In this document: one piece after another, positions 5,399-60,004 of the stretch | Layout of the letters: every line of letters begins with the position of its first letter | How positions within the stretch are numbered: position 1 is the first letter of the stretch | NCBI GenBank assembly: GCA_018969615.1 | Contig: JAGWYA010000004.1 | Coordinates: 9,922 to 73,921 of the forward strand | Origin: Patescibacteria group bacterium | Lineage (GTDB): Bacteria > Patescibacteriota > Minisyncoccia > UBA6257 > 02-FULL-45-10c | Direction: 5' to 3' | DNA length: 64,000 bases | The notes under the pieces: generated by a model | What the model saw: only the letters and a program-made list of their open reading frames with translations | Database searches by the model: none | What the model was told of the DNA's origin: nothing | Made by a program: the position numbers and the translations under genes

Positions 5399-5909
5399 TG
5401 ACGAACCGATAAAACAGAATACGGAAGAGCAGGAATTGGCGCCGCAAGTGAATGAGTCGAATGGTTCGGCAAGCTCACCACAAGCCGATCTCGAAAAGGT
5501 AGAGCAGGAACGCGACGAGTATCTGAACGGATGGAAGCGGGCGAAAGCCGATTTCATCAATTATCAGAAAGATGAGACTAAGCGTCTGCGGGATGCGATA
5601 GGGTATGGGTCGGAGAACATGATGCGCGATCTGATCCCGGTCCTTGACAGTTTCGCCCTTGCCGCCATGGCGGGAAAGGACGACGAGGGAATGAAAGCGA
5701 TCCAGAGCCAATTGAAGGATGTGCTGAAGCGGCATGGACTGGAGAAGATGGCGGTAAGTCCGGGAGATGCGTTCGATGTCACGGTCCATGAGTCGCTCGG
5801 CGAGATGGAATCGGATAAGCCATCGGGCACGGTCGCGGCGGAAGTCGAAGCGGGATATCTGCTGAACGGGAAGGTTATCCGTCCGGCGAGAGTGAAGCTG
5901 GCGAAATGA
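5382..5909 (+). CDS. grpE: Nucleotide exchange factor GrpE
   Basis: 175 aa. GrpE signature (EYLNGWKRAKADFINYQKDETKRL). Overlaps the hrcA stop and precedes dnaK. Confidence 0.88.
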   Translation: MNYMNNDEPIKQNTEEQELAPQVNESNGSASSPQADLEKVEQERDEYLNGWKRAKADFINYQKDETKRLRDAIGYGSENMMRDLIPVLDSFALAAMAGKDDEGMKAIQSQLKDVLKRHGLEKMAVSPGDAFDVTVHESLGEMESDKPSGTVAAEVEAGYLLNGKVIRPARVKLAK

Positions 5910-5914
5910 AGATA

Positions 5915-5945
5915 GTGCGTAGGCAGTAGGGAGTAGGCAGTAACA
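5915..5945. repeat. GTAGGSA heptad repeat (gtgcGTAGGCAGTAGGGAGTAGGCAGTAAC) in the grpE-dnaK intergenic region
   Basis: Same unit as in 76-150 and 46929-47020. Confidence 0.5.
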
Positions 5946-10770: not shown

Positions 10771-10776
10771 ATTTTG

Positions 10777-10847
10777 TGCCCCCACTTGGAATCGAACCAA
10801 GGTCAACTGCTTAAAAGGCAGCTGCTTTACCATTAAGCTATGGGGGC
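10777..10847 (-). tRNA. tRNA-Lys(UUU): tRNA-Lys (anticodon UUU)
   Basis: Hand-folded cloverleaf on the minus strand: acceptor GCCCCCA/TGGGGGC, D-arm GCTT-AATGGTAA-AAGC, anticodon stem GCTGC/GCAGT with loop CTTTTAA, T-arm CTTGG-TTCGATT-CCAAG, discriminator A. CCA is not encoded. Confidence 0.8.
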
Positions 10848-10916
10848 ACTCTACAAACAACGTTAATCCCTGCTTTTATTTTCGATGAGCGAACCGATCG
10901 GTAGGCAACGCCTACT

Positions 10917-10952
10917 AAAGGCAGCTGCTTTACCATTAAGCTATGGGGGCAA
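10917..10952 (-). pseudogene. Partial duplicate of the tRNA-Lys 5' half (acceptor 5' strand through the start of the anticodon loop, 34 nt identical)
   Basis: GCCCCCATAGCTTAATGGTAAAGCAGCTGCCTTT is identical to nt 1-34 of the tRNA 103 bp away, then diverges. I could not fold a T-arm or acceptor 3' strand. Confidence 0.55.
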
Positions 10953-14855: not shown

Positions 14856-15428
14856 TTATTTCGCCTTCTCGACGCGCTCTACGTATGCGCCGGTCTGGGT
14901 GTTCACGCGGATAATGTCGTCGTTGTTCACAAAGAGGGGAACTTGGACGACGACGCCGGTCTCGAGCGTCGCGGCTTTCGTGCCGCCCTGCGCGGTGTTC
15001 CCGCGTTCGCCCGGAGGTGTTTCCTTGACCTTCAGGTCCATTTTAACGGGGAGTCTCAGACCGATGATCTGATCATCAAGCTTTACGGCGGTGACGTCAG
15101 CGTTCTGTTTTAAGAACTGTGCGCCGGTTCCCACCTTTGCTTCTTCCATAGAGAAACGCGTTGCCGGCTTTCCTTTCTCGCAGAACCAGTATTGTCCGCG
15201 GTTCGCATAGAGGAAGGTCAGTTCCTGTGGTTCGAGCTCGATCGATTCGAGCGCTTCGTTCTGATGGAACGTATGCTCCACCACCTGCCCGGTCAGCAGG
15301 TTCTTTAATTTTGTTTTTGCAACCGGCTTACGCTGCTGCATGCGCAGGAAAGCGTACTCAAGTACTTCATAGGGCGTACCTTCGAACTTGAAGACCGTCC
15401 CGATCTTTAATTCGTTATAACTTAACAT
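14856..15428 (-). CDS. efp: Elongation factor P
   Basis: 190 aa. EF-P signature (MLSYNELKIGTVFKFEGTPYEVLEY...). The listed 386-aa ORF is an upstream in-frame extension that overlaps mnmA on the other strand. Confidence 0.9.
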   Translation of the reverse strand: MLSYNELKIGTVFKFEGTPYEVLEYAFLRMQQRKPVAKTKLKNLLTGQVVEHTFHQNEALESIELEPQELTFLYANRGQYWFCEKGKPATRFSMEEAKVGTGAQFLKQNADVTAVKLDDQIIGLRLPVKMDLKVKETPPGERGNTAQGGTKAATLETGVVVQVPLFVNNDDIIRVNTQTGAYVERVEKAK

Positions 15429-15521: not shown

Positions 15522-16793
15522 ATGGCAAAAAAAACGAGGAAAAAAGTATTCGTTGGCATGTCCGGTGGAGTGGACAGTTCCGTTGCCGCGGCGCTTCTGA
15601 AAGAGCGCGGTTTTGACGTGGTCGGCGTGCATTTGAAGTGCTACAACGTGGACGGCTGTGCCGAGCAGGATGCGGAAGACGCACGCCGGGCCGCGGAAAC
15701 GCTGGGGATCCCGTTCTATGTGTTGGATATGGAGCAGGAATATAAGGACCGGGTCGTACAATATATGGTGGACGGTTATCGAAAAGGGATCACGCCGAAC
15801 CCCGATGTCATGTGCAATAAAGAGATCAAATTCGGGCTTTTCCTTGAGAAGGCGCTGGCAATGGGCGCGGACTATATCGCGACCGGGCATTATGTACGGC
15901 TCAGAAAAGTTCGAGATGCTGGAAATGTTCAAGATGTTGTAACTGATGGAAGCAAGCGAACGGCAGCGAGTGATAGAGCAACTAGAACACTTGGAACGAG
16001 CGAAGCGATAGAACAAGCAGGGCGGTTGAACAAGCGAAGTGATCCATCATTCGAACTTCAGATCGCGCGCGATCTGAATAAGGACCAGTCTTATTTTTTG
16101 TGGACGCTTACTCAAAAGCAGCTCCGGCATGCGTTGTTTCCGGTCGGTGATATGACGAAGCCCGAGGTGCGCAAGCTTGCACGGAAATATAAGCTGCCGA
16201 ACGCGGAGAAGAAGGATTCGCAGGGGATCTGTTTCCTCGGACAGGTGACACTGAAGGATTTTTTGGCCGAGTATATTCCGCAAAAGAAGGGCGTGGTGGT
16301 GAATACGGCCGGTGAAGTGATCGGTGAGCATACCGGAGCTTATTTTTATACGATCGGCCAGCGGGGAGGCTTAGGGATCGGCGGGCATGCGAAGCCGTAT
16401 TATATCGCTGAAAAGGATGTGAAAGAGAATGCGCTTCTGGTCGCGGAGGAGGGGGACCCGGCGCTGTACCGGAAGGAGGTGCGATTAACGAATGTGAATT
16501 TCATCACTGCGCGCCCGGTGCAGGCGCGGACGTCGGTATGGGTGCGCGTGCGATATCGCCAGCCGCTGTTTAAGGCGACTCTCGTTGTTCAAAATGCTGG
16601 AAATGTTCAAGATGTTGTAAATGATAAGAGCGCTAAAAATAGACAAGCCAGCCGATCGAACAAGCGAAGCAGTAGAACAGCTATCACTTATACACTTGTG
16701 TTTGATAAGCCGCAGAAATTCGTCGCGACCGGACAGTCGGCGGTGTGGTATTCGAAAAAAGGTAGAATGCTCGGCGGCGGGGTTATTTTCTAA
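15522..16793 (+). CDS. mnmA: tRNA-specific 2-thiouridylase MnmA, carrying two in-frame insertions of a short repeat element
   Basis: PP-loop SGGVDSS, catalytic-region motifs and the C-terminal GQSAVWY motif. About 55-60 residues longer than typical MnmA because of inserts at about aa 132-175 and 358-387. Start taken as the ATG at 15522; the listed ORF begins at a TTG at 15504. Confidence 0.9.
   Translation: MAKKTRKKVFVGMSGGVDSSVAAALLKERGFDVVGVHLKCYNVDGCAEQDAEDARRAAETLGIPFYVLDMEQEYKDRVVQYMVDGYRKGITPNPDVMCNKEIKFGLFLEKALAMGADYIATGHYVRLRKVRDAGNVQDVVTDGSKRTAASDRATRTLGTSEAIEQAGRLNKRSDPSFELQIARDLNKDQSYFLWTLTQKQLRHALFPVGDMTKPEVRKLARKYKLPNAEKKDSQGICFLGQVTLKDFLAEYIPQKKGVVVNTAGEVIGEHTGAYFYTIGQRGGLGIGGHAKPYYIAEKDVKENALLVAEEGDPALYRKEVRLTNVNFITARPVQARTSVWVRVRYRQPLFKATLVVQNAGNVQDVVNDKSAKNRQASRSNKRSSRTAITYTLVFDKPQKFVATGQSAVWYSKKGRMLGGGVIF
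15915..16044. repeat. Repeat element copy A, inserted in-frame in mnmA (modules ATGTTCAAGATGTTGTAACTGA and GAACRAGCGAAGYGATAGAACA, the latter reiterated)
   Basis: A lower-GC insertion. 26 bp (TGCTGGAAATGTTCAAGATGTTGTAA) are identical to copy B. Encodes AGNVQDVVTD... Absent from canonical MnmA. Confidence 0.7.
16593..16681. repeat. Repeat element copy B, inserted in-frame near the 3' end of mnmA
   Basis: Same 26-bp core plus CGAACAAGCGAAGCAGTAGAACAG. Encodes AGNVQDVVND... Confidence 0.7.
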
Positions 16794-16797
16794 GTAT

Positions 16798-17802
16798 ATG
16801 GTAAGCGGATTTTGGAAAAAGATCGCGGCCCGGGCGAAGAAAGAGAAGCGCCCGATCATGGTTGCAGCGCCGATGGCGAACGTCACCGATGCGGCGTTCC
16901 GGAGGATGCTCGCCAAATACGGAAAGCGCTCCATCCGGAGGAAGGGGTATCTTGATGCATTGTGGACCGAATTCGTTTCGTGTGAGGGGCTTTGTTCGCC
17001 GGGGCGCGATGTTTTGCTGCAGGACCTTATGTATGACCGGTCCGAACGGCCGATCGTCGCCCAGTTCTTCGGTGCGAAGCCTGAACATTTTTATGAATCC
17101 GCCCGTCTGGCGCAGAAGCTTGGTTTTGACGGCATCGATATCAATATGGGATGCCCCGATAAGAACGTCATCCGGCAGGGCGCCGGCGTCGGACTGATCA
17201 GAACCCCCGAACTTGCGCAGGAGATCATCCGCGCGACGATGCGGGGCGCCGGAAAGCTTCCGGTCTCGGTGAAGACCCGCATCGGATTCAATTCGCCTGA
17301 TCTGAAGAATTGGCTGTCGGTCCTTTTGGAGACTGACCCCGCCGCGATCATTATCCATGGCCGCACGAAAAAAGAGATGTCCCTGGTGCCGGCGCATTGG
17401 GATATCATCGGCGAGGCGGTGGAGATCAGGAACGCATCCGGCAAGGATGTGCTTGTCCTGGGAAACGGGGATGTTTCAAGCCTGGAGGATGCACAGAAAA
17501 AATATGAGACCTATGGCGTTGACGGCGTTATGATCGGTCGGGCGATGTTCGGCACTCCTGACTTTTTTGCTCCCAACAAAAAACCGGCAACGCTGAAGCG
17601 GAATTTGAAGCTTGCGCTGGAGCACACGCTTCTTTTTGAGAAACTCTTCAAAGGAGAGAAACATTTTGACATCATGAAAAAGCATTACCGGTCCTATGTT
17701 GCGGGGCTTGAGAACGCGAAAGCCATGCGTTTTGAACTGATGAATCTGAAAAGCCTGGATGCGGCCAAGAAGACATTGAAAAAGCTGATCGCAGAAGCAT
17801 AG
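16798..17802 (+). CDS. dus: tRNA-dihydrouridine synthase
   Basis: About 334 aa from the ATG at 16798. Dus TIM-barrel motifs (MVAAPMANVTDAAFR, INMGCP, catalytic Cys). Confidence 0.85.
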   Translation: MVSGFWKKIAARAKKEKRPIMVAAPMANVTDAAFRRMLAKYGKRSIRRKGYLDALWTEFVSCEGLCSPGRDVLLQDLMYDRSERPIVAQFFGAKPEHFYESARLAQKLGFDGIDINMGCPDKNVIRQGAGVGLIRTPELAQEIIRATMRGAGKLPVSVKTRIGFNSPDLKNWLSVLLETDPAAIIIHGRTKKEMSLVPAHWDIIGEAVEIRNASGKDVLVLGNGDVSSLEDAQKKYETYGVDGVMIGRAMFGTPDFFAPNKKPATLKRNLKLALEHTLLFEKLFKGEKHFDIMKKHYRSYVAGLENAKAMRFELMNLKSLDAAKKTLKKLIAEA

Positions 17803-23416: not shown

Positions 23417-23437
23417 CCCTGCCTACCGGCAGGCAGG
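23417..23437 (-). terminator. GC palindrome CCCTGCCTACCGGCAGGCAGG with an A-run (T-run on the minus strand), downstream of rpmB. Sister copy of 160-181.
   Basis: Read directly. Confidence 0.5.
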
Positions 23438-46086: not shown

Positions 46087-46928
46087 TGAAAACAGCTGAT
46101 GCTTTTTTGGGGCATGAAGATCTGATAAAAGATTTTACCGCCTTGATTAAAACCGGACGGCTCGCCCACGGATATCTTTTCTTCGGCGAACCGAAGATCG
46201 GGAAGTTCGCGTTCGCAAAGAATCTCGCTTACTTATTGGAGCAGGGAACGTTCGAAGCGACCGATCGGCCCGCCAAAGGCGAGGCTCGCCAAAGGCGGCC
46301 GCTGCAGGATGCCATGATCGTACCGGAAGGCGGCGGGATCGATCTGATGCGTGAAGCGCGTCAGTTCGTCTGGCAGCGCCCGAACATTTCTTCCCGGCGC
46401 ATCGTGATCGTGAATGATGCGGATGACCTGACCGTTGAAGCGCAGAATGCGATCCTGAAGATCGCCGAGGAGCCTCCGGAGCACGCCGTGATCATTTTGA
46501 TCGCCCGCAATCTCGAAACTATCCTCCCGCCTTTGCGGTCCCGGCTGCAGAAGATCTATTTTGCGCCGCTGTCAGATGCGGATATGGCGAAAGAAGGCAT
46601 TTCGCCGAAGATCATTCCTATTGCTTATGGCCGGCCTGGCCGGGCAGCACAACTTGCCGAGCCGACGCAAGCAGCGCGTTCAGCTAAAGACTATACGGAT
46701 CGTTTTCTCCGCTCTTCCGGGCCGATGCGATCGAAAATGATCAAAGAGTTCATCGATCTGCAGAAAGAACAGCCTGAAATGTTGGATCTTTTTTTCGAAG
46801 AGGTGATCGCGGTTCTTCGGAAAGATCCGGTACGGAATGCGGCGGCTCTCCGCGACATACTGCATAGATTATTTCTGATAAAAGAGTATACTACGAATAA
46901 GCGGCTTCAATTGGAGGCTCTAGGATAG
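46086..46928 (+). CDS. holB: DNA polymerase III delta-prime-like clamp-loader subunit
   Basis: 280 aa. AAA+ lid with GYLFFGEPKIGK, VIVNDADDLTVEAQNAILKIAEEPP, and the sensor SRLQKIYF. Confidence 0.78.
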   Translation: MKTADAFLGHEDLIKDFTALIKTGRLAHGYLFFGEPKIGKFAFAKNLAYLLEQGTFEATDRPAKGEARQRRPLQDAMIVPEGGGIDLMREARQFVWQRPNISSRRIVIVNDADDLTVEAQNAILKIAEEPPEHAVIILIARNLETILPPLRSRLQKIYFAPLSDADMAKEGISPKIIPIAYGRPGRAAQLAEPTQAARSAKDYTDRFLRSSGPMRSKMIKEFIDLQKEQPEMLDLFFEEVIAVLRKDPVRNAAALRDILHRLFLIKEYTTNKRLQLEALG

Positions 46929-47020
46929 TTCGTAGAGAGTGGCGCGTAGGGAGTAGAAAATACCCTTGAGAGCCACGAACTGTGTTCTACTACGTGCTAC
47001 TGCCTATTTACTACTCACTA
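46929..47020. repeat. Inverted pair of GTAGGSA-type heptad repeats (GCGCGTAGGGAGTAG ... CTACTACGTGCTACTGCCTATTTACTACTCAC)
   Basis: Same family as 76-150 and 5915-5945, here present on both strands. Confidence 0.5.
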
Positions 47021-47123: not shown

Positions 47124-47666
47124 ATGGACGCAAAAGTTCTTGATCAGCGCTTACGCGCAGCCGTGGACAATCTAAAGACCGAATTCCAGACGATCCGGAG
47201 CGGCCGACCGTCGCCGCGGATGGTGGAGGACATCAAAGTTGAGGTCTATGGGCAACATCTGCCGGTCAAAGGCCTTGGCTCGATCTCGGTCGTACCGCCG
47301 AAAGAGATCGATATTACGTTATGGGATATTTCGATCGTTGGAGCGGTCTCAAAAGCGGTTGAGGACGCTTTGAAGGTTACGGCAAGCACCGACGGGGCCC
47401 TCATCAGGGTTAATTTACCTTCGCTGACCGAAGAGCGGAAAAAAGAATTTGAAAAAGTGATCAAAAAGTTGACTGAAGAGACCCGCATCCGGATCCGCGG
47501 TATCCGCGATGAAGCGAATAAGGATGTAAAACAGGAGGAGGCTGACAAAAAGATCTCCGAGGATTTTGCATTCAAGGAGAAAGAAGGGATCCAGAAGAAG
47601 ATCGATGCAACGAACAAAGAGATCGAGACGATCACGGGATCAAAATTGAAAGAGATCATGGACTAA
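47124..47666 (+). CDS. frr: Ribosome recycling factor
   Basis: 180 aa. RRF signature (GSISVVPPKEIDITLWD...VNLPSLTEERKKE). Confidence 0.92.
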   Translation: MDAKVLDQRLRAAVDNLKTEFQTIRSGRPSPRMVEDIKVEVYGQHLPVKGLGSISVVPPKEIDITLWDISIVGAVSKAVEDALKVTASTDGALIRVNLPSLTEERKKEFEKVIKKLTEETRIRIRGIRDEANKDVKQEEADKKISEDFAFKEKEGIQKKIDATNKEIETITGSKLKEIMD

Positions 47667-47759
47667 CGGCCCGCCCAGGGGCGAGGCTCGTCTTTAGCGG
47701 CCCGCTCAGAGGCGAGGCTTATTTTTAACGGCCCGCTCAGAGGCGAGGCTCGTCTTTAG
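47667..47759. repeat. Tandem array of three 31-bp units (CGGCCCGCYCAGRGGCGAGGCTYRTYTTTAR), followed by a terminator hairpin CGGCCgcgaGGCCG plus T-run at 47760-47783
   Basis: Read directly. The unit length is not a multiple of 3, so the array is noncoding. Confidence 0.65.
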
Positions 47760-47811
47760 CGGCCGCGAGGCCGTTTTTCTTTTCCGGTGAGCCGCGCTAT
47801 ACTGAACGTAT

Positions 47812-58547: not shown

Positions 58548-59180
58548 ATGTTCGACCTTATCGCATTGATCAAAGCGGCGGGGTATCTTGGTATTTTTGC
58601 CGTGATCTTCGCTGAATCAGGATTGTTCATCGGTTTCTTTTTTCCGGGCGACAGTCTTTTGTTCACCGCCGGGTTTTTGGCGTCGCAGGGGTATCTGCAG
58701 ATCGGCATGGTCATGGTTTTGGTGTTTATCGCGGCGGTCTTGGGCGACACCGCGGGGTATGCGTTCGGCTATCGGGTCGGCCCGATGATCTTCCGCAGGG
58801 AAGATTCGGTGATCTTCCATAAGGATAATCTTTTGCGCGCCGAAGCGTTTTATGAGAAATACGGCAAAAAGACGATCATTCTTGCCCGGTTCCTTCCCGC
58901 GGTTCGGACGTTCGCGCCGATCCTTGCCGGCGTCGGAAAGATGCGTTACCGCACCTTCGTTTCCTATAACGTTATCGGCGGTCTTTTATGGGGCATCGGC
59001 GTTCCCGGATTGGGATATTATCTGGGACGTTCAGTCCCGAATATCGATCACTATTTATTGCCGATCATCGGGCTGATCATTGTTCTTTCGATCCTCCCGA
59101 CCGCTTTTCAGGTCCTCCGGGACCCTCAGCGGCGGGTGCATATTTGGGGTATACTGAAAAGAATAGCATTCAAGAAATAA
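58548..59180 (+). CDS. DedA/SNARE-associated family membrane protein
   Basis: 210 aa. DedA signature FFPGDSLLFTAGFLA. Confidence 0.8.
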   Translation: MFDLIALIKAAGYLGIFAVIFAESGLFIGFFFPGDSLLFTAGFLASQGYLQIGMVMVLVFIAAVLGDTAGYAFGYRVGPMIFRREDSVIFHKDNLLRAEAFYEKYGKKTIILARFLPAVRTFAPILAGVGKMRYRTFVSYNVIGGLLWGIGVPGLGYYLGRSVPNIDHYLLPIIGLIIVLSILPTAFQVLRDPQRRVHIWGILKRIAFKK

Positions 59181-59197
59181 CAGATCGAATTGTTCAC

Positions 59198-59243
59198 ATG
59201 TTCTGCCTGTTGTAGCTGAACAAGCGCAGCGATAGAACAGGGA
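59198..59243. repeat. Repeat element copy C (ATGTTCTGCCTGTTGTAGCTGA + GAACAAGCGCAGCGATAGAACAGGG), intergenic between the DedA-family gene and tpiA. Probably the minimal form of the element inserted in mnmA.
   Basis: Both modules match copies A and B at 15915 and 16593. Confidence 0.6.
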
Positions 59244-59272
59244 GAACATTTATCATCATTAGAACGGATCCA

Positions 59273-60004
59273 ATGGCAAAGCTGATCATGTTCAATTGGA
59301 AAATGAATCCGTCTTCCGTGCAGGAGGCGGGAGTTTTGGCGCAGGCGAGCGATCATGAGCATGTCGTAGTGGTTCCGCCGTTCCCGTATCTGCTGGTGGC
59401 GGGGGATATGCTGACCCGGGCGCAGCTGGGAGCGCAGGATGTATTCTGGGAGAATCCGCCGGAACGAAAAGGGTCCTTTACCGGAGAAGTATCCGCGAGC
59501 CAGCTGAAGGATATGAATGTGAAATACGTGATCGTGGGCCATTCGGAGCGCCGGCATAAGCTGCATGAATCCGATGAGGTCATCGCAAAAAAGCTCCGGA
59601 CGGCTTTCGATGCCGGGTTTATTTCCGTTCTGTGTGTCGGAGAAACGAAAGAGGAGCGGGCGGCCGGAAAGACGGAAGAGGTCATTACGCGCCAGATCGC
59701 GGCCGATCTCTCGCTGATGGCGGGCGTTTCGATCCCGAGCGATCGGATCCTTCTTGCCTATGAGCCGGTTTGGGCGATCGGCACCGGAGATCCGGAAACG
59801 CCGGCAGGAGCGGCAAAGACCATCGGGTTCATTAGATCAGTGCTCCGGTCGCAGATATCGGTGACGCCGCAAGTCCTTTATGGCGGGTCAGTGACCGGCG
59901 ACAACGTGAATGATTTTCTTAAACTTCCCGAGATCGACGGCGTATTAGTGGGAGGTGCGAGCCTGAAGACGGATGAGATCGAAAAAATGCTTGCTTTGCT
60001 CTAG
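59273..60004 (+). CDS. tpiA: Triose-phosphate isomerase
   Basis: 243 aa. TIM signatures (NWKMN; AYEPVWAIGTG). Confidence 0.93.
   Translation: MAKLIMFNWKMNPSSVQEAGVLAQASDHEHVVVVPPFPYLLVAGDMLTRAQLGAQDVFWENPPERKGSFTGEVSASQLKDMNVKYVIVGHSERRHKLHESDEVIAKKLRTAFDAGFISVLCVGETKEERAAGKTEEVITRQIAADLSLMAGVSIPSDRILLAYEPVWAIGTGDPETPAGAAKTIGFIRSVLRSQISVTPQVLYGGSVTGDNVNDFLKLPEIDGVLVGGASLKTDEIEKMLALL

Follow-up and report, generated by a model that had tools for sequence, protein, structure and literature searches.

The mnmA gene of a Patescibacteria group bacterium (assembly GCA_018969615.1, contig JAGWYA010000004.1) raises the question of how two segments of one housekeeping gene came to share nearly the same DNA with each other and with a distant intergenic spacer. 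The window, by which we mean the whole 64,000-nucleotide stretch of that contig analysed here, carries the gene for the tRNA 2-thiouridylase MnmA with two in-frame inserts. These inserts are built from the same small repeat units as a compact copy found between two other genes. On balance, both mnmA segments probably belong, together with the intergenic copy, to a modular family of inverted repeats in Patescibacteria, also known as the candidate phyla radiation (CPR). The family would be non-autonomous and low in copy number, and resembles the RPE repeats of Rickettsia.

Two in-frame copies in mnmA and one copy between genes

The gene, its inserts and the intergenic copy are located in the window as follows.

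15522–16793, + strand: mnmA (tRNA 2-thiouridylase) coding sequence, 423 aa, intact open reading frame (ORF), host of two element copies
15906–16049, + strand: insert 1, residues ~129–176 of MnmA
15909–15953, + strand: left arm of insert 1, five 9-nt units, GTTCGAGAT GCTGGAAAT GTTCAAGAT GTTGTAACT GATGGAAGC
Between the left and right arms of insert 1: degenerate middle
15994–16010, 16011–16027 and 16028–16044: right arm of insert 1, three 17-nt units, GAACGAGCGAAGCGATA, GAACAAGCAGGGCGGTT and GAACAAGCGAAGTGATC
15916–15942, + strand: 27-nt identical tract, insert 1 copy, exact match to 16594–16620
16587–16682, + strand: insert 2, residues ~356–387 of MnmA
16587–16631, + strand: left arm of insert 2, GTTCAAAAT GCTGGAAAT GTTCAAGAT GTTGTAAAT GATAAGAGC
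16594–16620, + strand: 27-nt identical tract, insert 2 copy, exact match to 15916–15942
16658–16674: GAACAAGCGAAGCAGTA in the right arm of insert 2, followed by GAACAGCT
59191–59252, + strand: compact intergenic copy, three TGTT(C/G) units, then GAACAAGCGCAGCGATA, GAACAGGGA and GAACA
58548–59180: VTT/DedA-domain gene, neighbour of the intergenic copy
59273–60004: tpiA, its other neighbour

A scan of the 64 kb for the 26-nt core TGCTGGAAATGTTCAAGATGTTGTAA gives exactly two sites, 15917–15942 and 16595–16620 on the + strand, and none of 100 dinucleotide-preserving shuffles gave a match with up to three mismatches permitted. The identity between the two mnmA copies reaches 27 nt, with one more base upstream, and the 39 nt around it are 92% identical. 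A second module, of the GAACAAGCGAAGCGATAGAACA type, is located at 15994, 16011/16028, 16658 and 59218 with 1–4 mismatches. Across the 64 kb, phased clusters of TGTTC or GAACA pentamers are limited to three places, one in each of the mnmA segments and one at 59191–59266, while 0.01–0.04 such clusters are expected from shuffled sequence. The original prediction, that two mnmA segments share a 26-bp core and a second module, is borne out by the exact string scan, the shuffles and the pentamer-cluster scan. The third copy that it placed between the DedA-family gene and tpiA has also been found, and matches the 22-nt right-arm module with one mismatch.

Both mnmA copies begin at a codon boundary and follow a common design. 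The left arm of the family consists of tandem 9-nt units with a TGTTC core in variable number. In the right arm the units are 9 and 17 nt long and have GAACA as their core, several of the 17-mers being of the form GAACAAGCGAAGCGATN. Since TGTTC and GAACA are reverse-complementary, the two arms are inverted arrays. The 17-mer holds a GC-RNA-GC core, for example GCGAAGC. Because 17 is one less than 18, consecutive 17-mers are read in all three frames, which gives the recurring peptide TSEAI-EQAKR(S/L)-NKRSD; in insert 1 the three units, each in a different frame, encode TSEAI-EQAGRL-NKRSD. Copy length is ~52–144 nt, and the copies have no coding capacity of their own. The ends of insert 1 match each other in inverted orientation over 8–12 nt (AAGTTCGAGATG vs CATCATTCGAACTT); no termini conserved across copies were seen.

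The reading of both segments in frame, as predicted, agrees with the rest of the gene. The codon phase is the same in both copies and gives the peptide AGNVQDVV(T/N)D (an example of the insert-encoded peptide of the window MnmA is DAGNVQDVVTDGSK), the ORF is intact, and all three of the MnmA Pfam domains are matched by it. The product matches MnmA chains of the PDB at E 1e-82, and its 423 aa compare with ~375 aa in the solved homologues. In the alignment with solved MnmA, query residues 133–181 at site 1 lie opposite 7 residues of 9hlv, and query residues 358–391 at site 2 lie opposite 5 residues. The solved structures have short turns there, in keeping with the claim that canonical MnmA has no insertion at these positions. 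The empty orthologue, in locus L132, likewise has native short turns at both sites, RLKKFGKTYKL and LAMSGKKYRL.

An AlphaFold2 model of the window MnmA has been built on 24 homologues. The predicted local distance difference test (pLDDT) score falls below 50 exactly at residues 134–172 and 361–384. The first stretch lies between beta-hairpin strands 124–130 and 176–181, and the second between strands 350–359 and 387–399. The remaining model superposes on 2hma, 2det and 2der with a target-normalised template-modelling (TM) score of 0.84–0.85. As the low-pLDDT stretches fall between the two strands of beta-hairpins, the inserts are loop extensions at hairpin tips in the predicted structure. They are probably translated as disordered surface loops. 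The gene is flanked by efp (14859–15428, − strand) and dus (16798–17802, + strand).

The repeat family in other loci and in relatives of MnmA

A metagenome scan with the right-arm 21-mer AACAAGCGAAGCGATNSAWCA matched at least 120 stretches. Among the matches listed, 114 distinct elements can be told apart, most of them with the same unit architecture, and about 85–90% of the copies (~100 copies) are intergenic, mostly less than 100 nt from a gene end. These intergenic copies occur in both orientations relative to the neighbouring genes (~33 vs 22). About 15 of the listed copies lie in frame inside long ORFs, and all of these (~15/15) have the GAACA arm on the coding strand. The fixed orientation in ORFs against the mixed orientation between genes means that the bias is best attributed to selection on the peptide.

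The hosts of the in-frame copies identified by Pfam are GT4 and other glycosyltransferases, LeuRS, an IleRS-type synthetase, PriA, UvrA and an EF-Tu-type GTPase. LeuRS carries the repeat at two sites, one in the hairpin of the editing domain and one close to the anticodon-binding domain. In PriA it lies in the 3' DNA-binding domain, and the host EF-Tu-type GTPase has LepA-like sequence. Further hosts have been recognised from sequence, namely MnmA at site 2 (L024/L047), MnmA at site 1 (L094, 59–61% identical to CPR homologues) and a TrmD-like protein (L130). In metagenomes, in-frame occurrence extends to at least eight other protein families, and the comparison with the Rickettsia RPEs is apt, the same family being present in these proteins and between genes. 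On the other hand, the element is not specific to the lineage of the window as had been proposed, since the family is spread across several MnmA clades and many metagenomes. Some repeat-hosting synthetases (L071:4772-8278, L075:1646-4681, L061:4462-6786) also carry whole inserted domains, NUDIX and Ser_hydrolase in LeuRS and His_Phos_1 in the IleRS-type enzyme.

The loci L021, L057 and L121 are near-identical and differ only in the number of 9-nt CAACAAYTA right-arm units, which shows array dynamics and is a polymorphism between strains. All-against-all clustering of 729 neighbouring genes from 120 loci yielded no recurrent family that could be a linked transposase. With no recurrent neighbouring gene, the element appears to be non-autonomous. 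The 20-mer AAATGTTCAAGATGTTGTAA gave seven matches in species-representative genomes (a collection without the source genome), in unrelated taxa and at about the number expected by chance. A profile of the element peptide gave one match against 5.8 billion proteins, the profile being too short for database-scale E-values. In a subfamily on contigs of ~40% GC (L013, L017, L025, L036, L040, L042, L043, L055 and others; e.g. contigs Ga0209187 and Ga0114957), tandem TCAACA-type 9-/17-nt units occur with no inverted arm. The arrays of this subfamily often stop 10–30 nt before a start codon, with no obvious Shine-Dalgarno sequence, and its contigs may lie outside Patescibacteria.

The 120 best MnmA homologues (P0001–P0120, P0001 being the window) range in length from 339 to 504 aa, and both insert positions are filled by many unrelated sequences among them. 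Members of the present family were recognised by the peptide signature V-x-(D/N)-V ... (E/Q)QAKR-x-NKRSD, and are distributed as follows.

Both MnmA sites: P0001 (window), P0003, P0031, P0073
Site 1 only: P0011/P0018, P0067
Site 2 only: P0002, P0066

In a neighbour-joining tree of 75 MnmA homologues, P0001, P0002 and P0003 form one clade with the states both, site 2 only and both, and the sister clade is without the family. The remaining carriers fall into five further separate clades, so that at least six clades in all have the family at one or both of the same sites. The family has been gained or lost repeatedly at these two loops, and the hairpin tips of MnmA are exceptionally permissive hot spots.

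An orthologue of insert 1 is present in L009/P0003, and an orthologue of insert 2 in L008/P0002 with 84% nucleotide identity. As these relatives have MnmA proteins 74–83% identical over aligned columns, both window inserts predate the split. The idea of two insertions of a repeat holds in so far as the segments are in-frame additions and copies of a dispersed repeat, but the insertions are not recent, P0002 having an orthologue of insert 2 and P0003 orthologues of both. Orthologous segments thus occur at the same positions in relatives, while copies are far from being confined to this gene, the family being widespread. At site 1 the closest relative (L008:10001-11164) is without insert 1 and has three tandem GTCGAAA heptamers (..ERRKSKVES..), which may be an insert remnant or a different slippage product.

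In the 27-nt tract the two window copies are identical, and the L008 orthologue of insert 2 differs at three positions. Immediately downstream of the tract, each insert agrees with its own orthologue, insert 2 with that of L008 and insert 1 with that of L009. Because of this mosaic of paralogue identity in the tract and orthologue match downstream, the identical core is best explained by gene conversion between the two copies over a short tract, within the lineage of the window, and not by two recent insertions.

Divergence, folding and competing explanations

The inserts have diverged differently from the gene around them. Between the window and L008, the mnmA core has a nonsynonymous rate (dN) of 0.09 and a synonymous rate (dS) of 1.15, with codon positions 1, 2 and 3 identical at 257/298, 280/298 and 180/298. 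Insert 2 has a dN of 0.14 and a dS of 0.30, with 32/34, 27/34 and 27/34 identical positions. Compared with L009, L010 and L011, the inserts have dN ~ dS at 0.4–0.8, and the dS of the core is 1.4 or saturated. The relaxed dN/dS of the inserts means that they are not constrained as protein.

These observations can be combined into a mechanism. Copying would take place on DNA and would deliver new copies mostly to the short spacers between genes, less often to the genes themselves. The agent could be a transposase working in trans, or else recombination or template switching where hairpins tend to form. Inside genes, selection would retain only frame-preserving, stop-free copies in permissive surface loops, and the retained orientation would give a hydrophilic product, rich in N/D/Q/V and then in K/R/S/N/E. 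Gain and loss of left-arm units by slippage would keep the frame because the units are 9 nt long. Both beta-hairpin tips of MnmA would already have carried copies when this lineage parted from its relatives, and the inserts are presumably translated as disordered loops without protein-level constraint. A conversion tract of ~27 nt would then have recently equalised the two left arms.

Several points weigh against this reading. No transposase, target-site duplication or empty/filled allele pair has been found, and the sole empty site compared (L132) is too diverged. The original prediction of a mobile repeat stands as regards the dispersed distribution, and mobility is read from that distribution. 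Many intergenic members consist of the GAACA-type array alone with no inverted arm, which is unlike classical miniature inverted-repeat transposable elements, or MITEs. The density is low: the window holds three copies in its 64 kb, and in the seeded loci ~8 extra elements were counted over 747 kb. We infer the translation of the inserts from the DNA, and taxonomy has been assigned for a minority of the metagenomic loci. Finally, the third-position identity of insert 2 (27/34) is higher than that of the host gene (180/298; Fisher p = 0.04, 34 codons only). The insert thus diverges less than the synonymous sites of mnmA do. Such an excess is not expected of neutrally decaying selfish DNA and hints either at nucleotide-level constraint or at continued homogenisation with other copies.

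The folding of the copies bears on the question of such constraint. The window intergenic copy forms a hairpin at 59198–59249 with an RNA fold of -25 kcal/mol (z -3.4), and the intergenic copies of L016, L050, L021 and L030 have fold z-scores of -3 to -5.5. The whole intragenic copies fold no better than shuffles, with z -0.5 for insert 1 and +0.4 for insert 2. The copies in mnmA thus have no significant structure, and of the three copies in the window the intergenic one alone is a good hairpin. Searches of the window, the inserts and five loci against Rfam at gathering and E-value thresholds returned tRNAs only at the gathering score, with no credible match for the inserts or the intergenic copies. 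The intergenic copy of the window does not meet the intrinsic-terminator consensus, a single promoter-like match overlaps it, which is no more than chance, and mnmA has no outstanding signals.

The heptamer that follows GAACAA was counted in 69 17-mer units other than the search seed. It is GCGAAGC in 19/69, GCAAAGC in 8/69, GCGCAGC in 7/69, GCACAGC in 3/69, GCGTAGC in 3/69, GCAGAGC in 2/69 and GCGGAGC in 1/69, so that the pattern is GC-R-N-A-GC, with GCGNAGC in 30 and GCANAGC in 13 of the 69 units. GCGNAGC is a mini-hairpin DNA motif with a reported melting temperature of 70–76 °C, for which the GNA loop is needed (PMC13037366). The likeness of the 17-mer heptamer to the d(GCGNAGC) motif is suggestive. 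As the stem positions are nearly invariant, this is a resemblance to the mini-hairpin and gives no covariation evidence.

Directly 3' of insert 1, the coding DNA holds a further hairpin-forming sequence:

16057–16078, + strand: perfect 22-nt palindrome TTCAGATCGCGCGCGATCTGAA

Equivalents are present at the same mnmA codons in L009 (TTCGTATCGCGCGCGATACGAA) and L010 (TTCTGATCGCGAAGGATCAGAA), where flanking codons (Q/L, R/T, L/Q) are altered on both sides together and the pairing is kept. The palindrome is absent at the equivalent mnmA codons of L008, L011, L132 and L133, and whether it belongs to the repeat element is uncertain.

Other explanations have also been weighed. The copies could be a functional cis-acting nucleic-acid signal under nucleotide-level selection, with the intragenic copies as functional sites compatible with coding. 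Such a signal might be an array of single-stranded DNA (ssDNA) mini-hairpins, or a set of phased sites for a conserved Patescibacteria protein acting in the priming or pausing of replication, in recombination, in DNA uptake or in the processing of transcripts. A signal of this kind would account for a 15- to 21-nt core that is exact across contigs of 33 to 64% GC, for the fit of the heptamer to the GNA mini-hairpin rule (PMC13037366), for the third-position identity and low dS of insert 2 (0.30 vs 1.15), for the position of most copies less than 100 nt from gene boundaries, and for the pairing-preserving palindrome beside insert 1. It is harder to reconcile with the lack of a significant fold in the intragenic copies, the two orientations between genes, the very low density, the nearly invariant heptamer stem without covariation evidence, and the negative Rfam, terminator and promoter results; concerted evolution between copies could also give the same low dS. 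We regard a signal as unlikely. Its strongest form, a Patescibacteria-wide signal in which TGTTC/GAACA units and GCGNAGC ssDNA mini-hairpins are read by a conserved protein and selected even in coding DNA, is decidedly unlikely. If it were true, the loops of genes such as mnmA would contain a further code besides the protein one, and the hot-spot colonisation of the two MnmA hairpins would be directed and not accidental.

It is very unlikely that the inserts are selected protein modules, basic and flexible, that aid the binding of tRNA or other nucleic acids and share DNA sequence as a by-product of module duplication. The peptides are indeed rich in K, R, S and N (e.g. EQAKRSNKRSD), most hosts bind nucleic acids (MnmA, the TrmD-like protein, LeuRS, IleRS, UvrA, PriA and the translational GTPase), and both MnmA loops are filled together in P0001, P0003, P0031 and P0073. 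However, the inserts have dN ~ dS where the core has a dN/dS of ~0.08, they are modelled as disordered, and the large majority of the listed members are intergenic. The closest relative, P0002, is also without insert 1 and the sister clade without both, other lineages have unrelated sequences in these loops, and glycosyltransferases are hosts too. An origin without any mobility, by local 9-nt slippage and gene conversion with a coincidental low-complexity convergence of the intergenic copy, would agree with the 9-nt periodicity of the left arms, with unit numbers that vary between near-identical loci, with the conversion evidence between the two inserts and with the hypervariability of these loops in nearly all CPR MnmA proteins. 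This origin is nevertheless highly improbable, as the 22-nt right-arm match with one mismatch has a chance of ~5e-7 in 64 kb by our own estimate, and the exact 21-mer recurs with the same flanking architecture in 114 distinct elements from unrelated genes and spacers among the matches listed. Slippage alone is unable to carry sequence between loci and is contradicted by the cross-locus identity. Repeats can mislead assemblers, and the source is a contig of a metagenome-assembled genome. An assembly artefact is still scarcely credible as the source of the duplicated core, given that the ORF is intact with all MnmA domains kept, that independent assemblies from other samples have orthologous inserts at the same two sites, and that 27 nt is shorter than typical assembly k-mers.

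Some candidates were dropped outright. A template/variable repeat pair of a diversity-generating retroelement was rejected as the differences between copies are not adenine-specific, and an intein or intron as the inserts are too short, always preserve the frame and have no stops. DNA uptake sequences were rejected on the measured cluster density, the units being clustered and not dispersed at high density. Arrays of parS, LexA boxes or DnaA boxes were set aside because the units do not appear to fit those consensus sequences.

Other repeats, significance and known systems

The window and its relatives also contain other repeats. The hairpin repeat CCTGCCTGCCGGCAGGCAGG is intergenic in the window at 161–181 and 23417–23437, and lies in frame near the mnmA C-terminus of L008 (11087–11164) and L009 (11210–11287), where it encodes (D/N)(L/P)PAGRQV. 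It is a second repeat family with the same in-frame behaviour. At the two MnmA loops of P0001–P0120, unrelated recurrent inserts include SRYISDGTGVVRFQRANAPTP..RSYRTKHT, VRTAVRSLQRRAPATPQRQNSAF, STRFARPATRSLVLAG, YENQNKFFPAKNFSSPSA, GFRGQGLGVRKTK..YPIPYTLY and FIIHNSxFKL. Their resemblance to translated repetitive or palindromic DNA suggests that the phenomenon may be general in CPR bacteria.

Arrays of ~7-nt GTAGGNA units are located directly after gene ends in the window, at 66–137, 5911–5941 (after the grpE stop at 5909) and 46924–46954. In L008, the spacer between grpE and dnaK holds a further copy of the TGTTC/GAACA element, placed directly behind the stop codon of grpE. As this spacer holds a GTAGGNA array in the window and the TGTTC/GAACA element in L008, repeat families turn over in the same spacer. 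The tRNA-Lys(UUU) gene (10776–10847, − strand) encodes a tRNA of the MnmA substrate type. Its 5' half is duplicated without mismatch over 35 nt at a distance of 103 nt (10814–10848 = 10917–10951), and the duplicate could be a remnant of integration or of a partial duplication. Three tandem copies of a 31-nt unit (TAACGGCCCGCYCAGRGGCGAGGCT...) are found at 47664–47764, after an ORF ending at 47666, with a diverged copy 1.4 kb upstream at 46262–46300.

An RPE-like repeat family in Patescibacteria would extend selfish DNA inside protein-coding genes, documented chiefly for the Rickettsia RPEs, to the CPR radiation. It would explain in concrete terms why CPR housekeeping proteins differ so strikingly in length, at least in part, as with the 339–504 aa of MnmA and the many unrelated repeat-like inserts at the same loops. 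Phylogenomic alignments and homology models are best made with the insert segments masked. The segments can mislead domain annotation, and the unit number, which is variable between near-identical loci, could provide strain-level markers. The inserts would also be a natural experiment in non-coding DNA turning into protein sequence, and their unexpected nucleotide-level conservation raises the question of a function of the repeat itself.

Among known systems, the REP/BIME elements are mobilised by RAYT (TnpA-REP) transposases and have as their signature a GTAG tetranucleotide beside a hairpin of 20–40 nt. Like the present family, they are short extragenic palindromes found close to the ends of genes, and both may be handled in the form of single-stranded hairpins. 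In contrast to them, the units have no visible GTAG-plus-hairpin signature, and no RAYT gene was seen among the genes neighbouring any copy. REPs are not known to insert in frame systematically. Modular interspersed repeats and MITEs include the pneumococcal BOX elements (boxA-boxB(n)-boxC), ERIC, Correia/NEMIS and the cyanobacterial MITEs. Like these, the present elements are small, non-autonomous, hairpin-forming and mostly intergenic, and some of these families also show occasional in-frame fusions. The variable number of internal units is shared with BOX, and the several copies (three in 64 kb) of less than 300 bp and no coding capacity are shared with MITEs. In the present family no defined terminal inverted repeats, target-site duplications or partner insertion sequence have been identified, its density is far below that of typical MITE bursts, and in several lineages one gene has in-frame copies at the same two loops.

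The mini-hairpin d(GCGNAGC) of Hirao and colleagues (PMC13037366) is matched by GCGAAGC, GCGCAGC, GCGTAGC or GCGGAGC in 30 of the 69 independent units, all of them forms for which very stable hairpins of single-stranded DNA are reported. The 13 units with GCANAGC differ from it, since that form is not listed as hairpin-forming in PMC13037366, and the hairpin proposed here is deduced from sequence.

The closest likeness is to the RPEs, the in-frame repeats of Rickettsia (Ogata et al. 2000, 2002; summarised in PMC10969869), which a 2024 review describes as the outstanding case of in-frame insertion, with no mention of CPR bacteria (PMC10969869). Differences from the RPEs are evident. The present family is found in Patescibacteria and not in Rickettsia, and is likened to the RPEs by its features and not by the sequences of RPE-1 to RPE-10. 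Its length of 52–144 nt is not fixed, its arms have variable numbers of 9-/17-nt units, many members are without one arm, and no stable palindrome is predicted for the intragenic copies. On the other hand, both are short repeats of non-coding type that lie between genes and in frame within unrelated housekeeping genes. In both cases the host protein gains a hydrophilic peptide at positions on its surface and is not destroyed, and both have a low copy number in the reduced genomes of host-dependent bacteria. A search of the literature on Patescibacteria or CPR bacteria for palindromic elements, MITEs or in-frame repeats gave no description of such an element, in agreement with the suggestion that it was undescribed. 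The principle itself is known, and the element is apparently an undescribed extension of RPE-type in-frame repeats to Patescibacteria.

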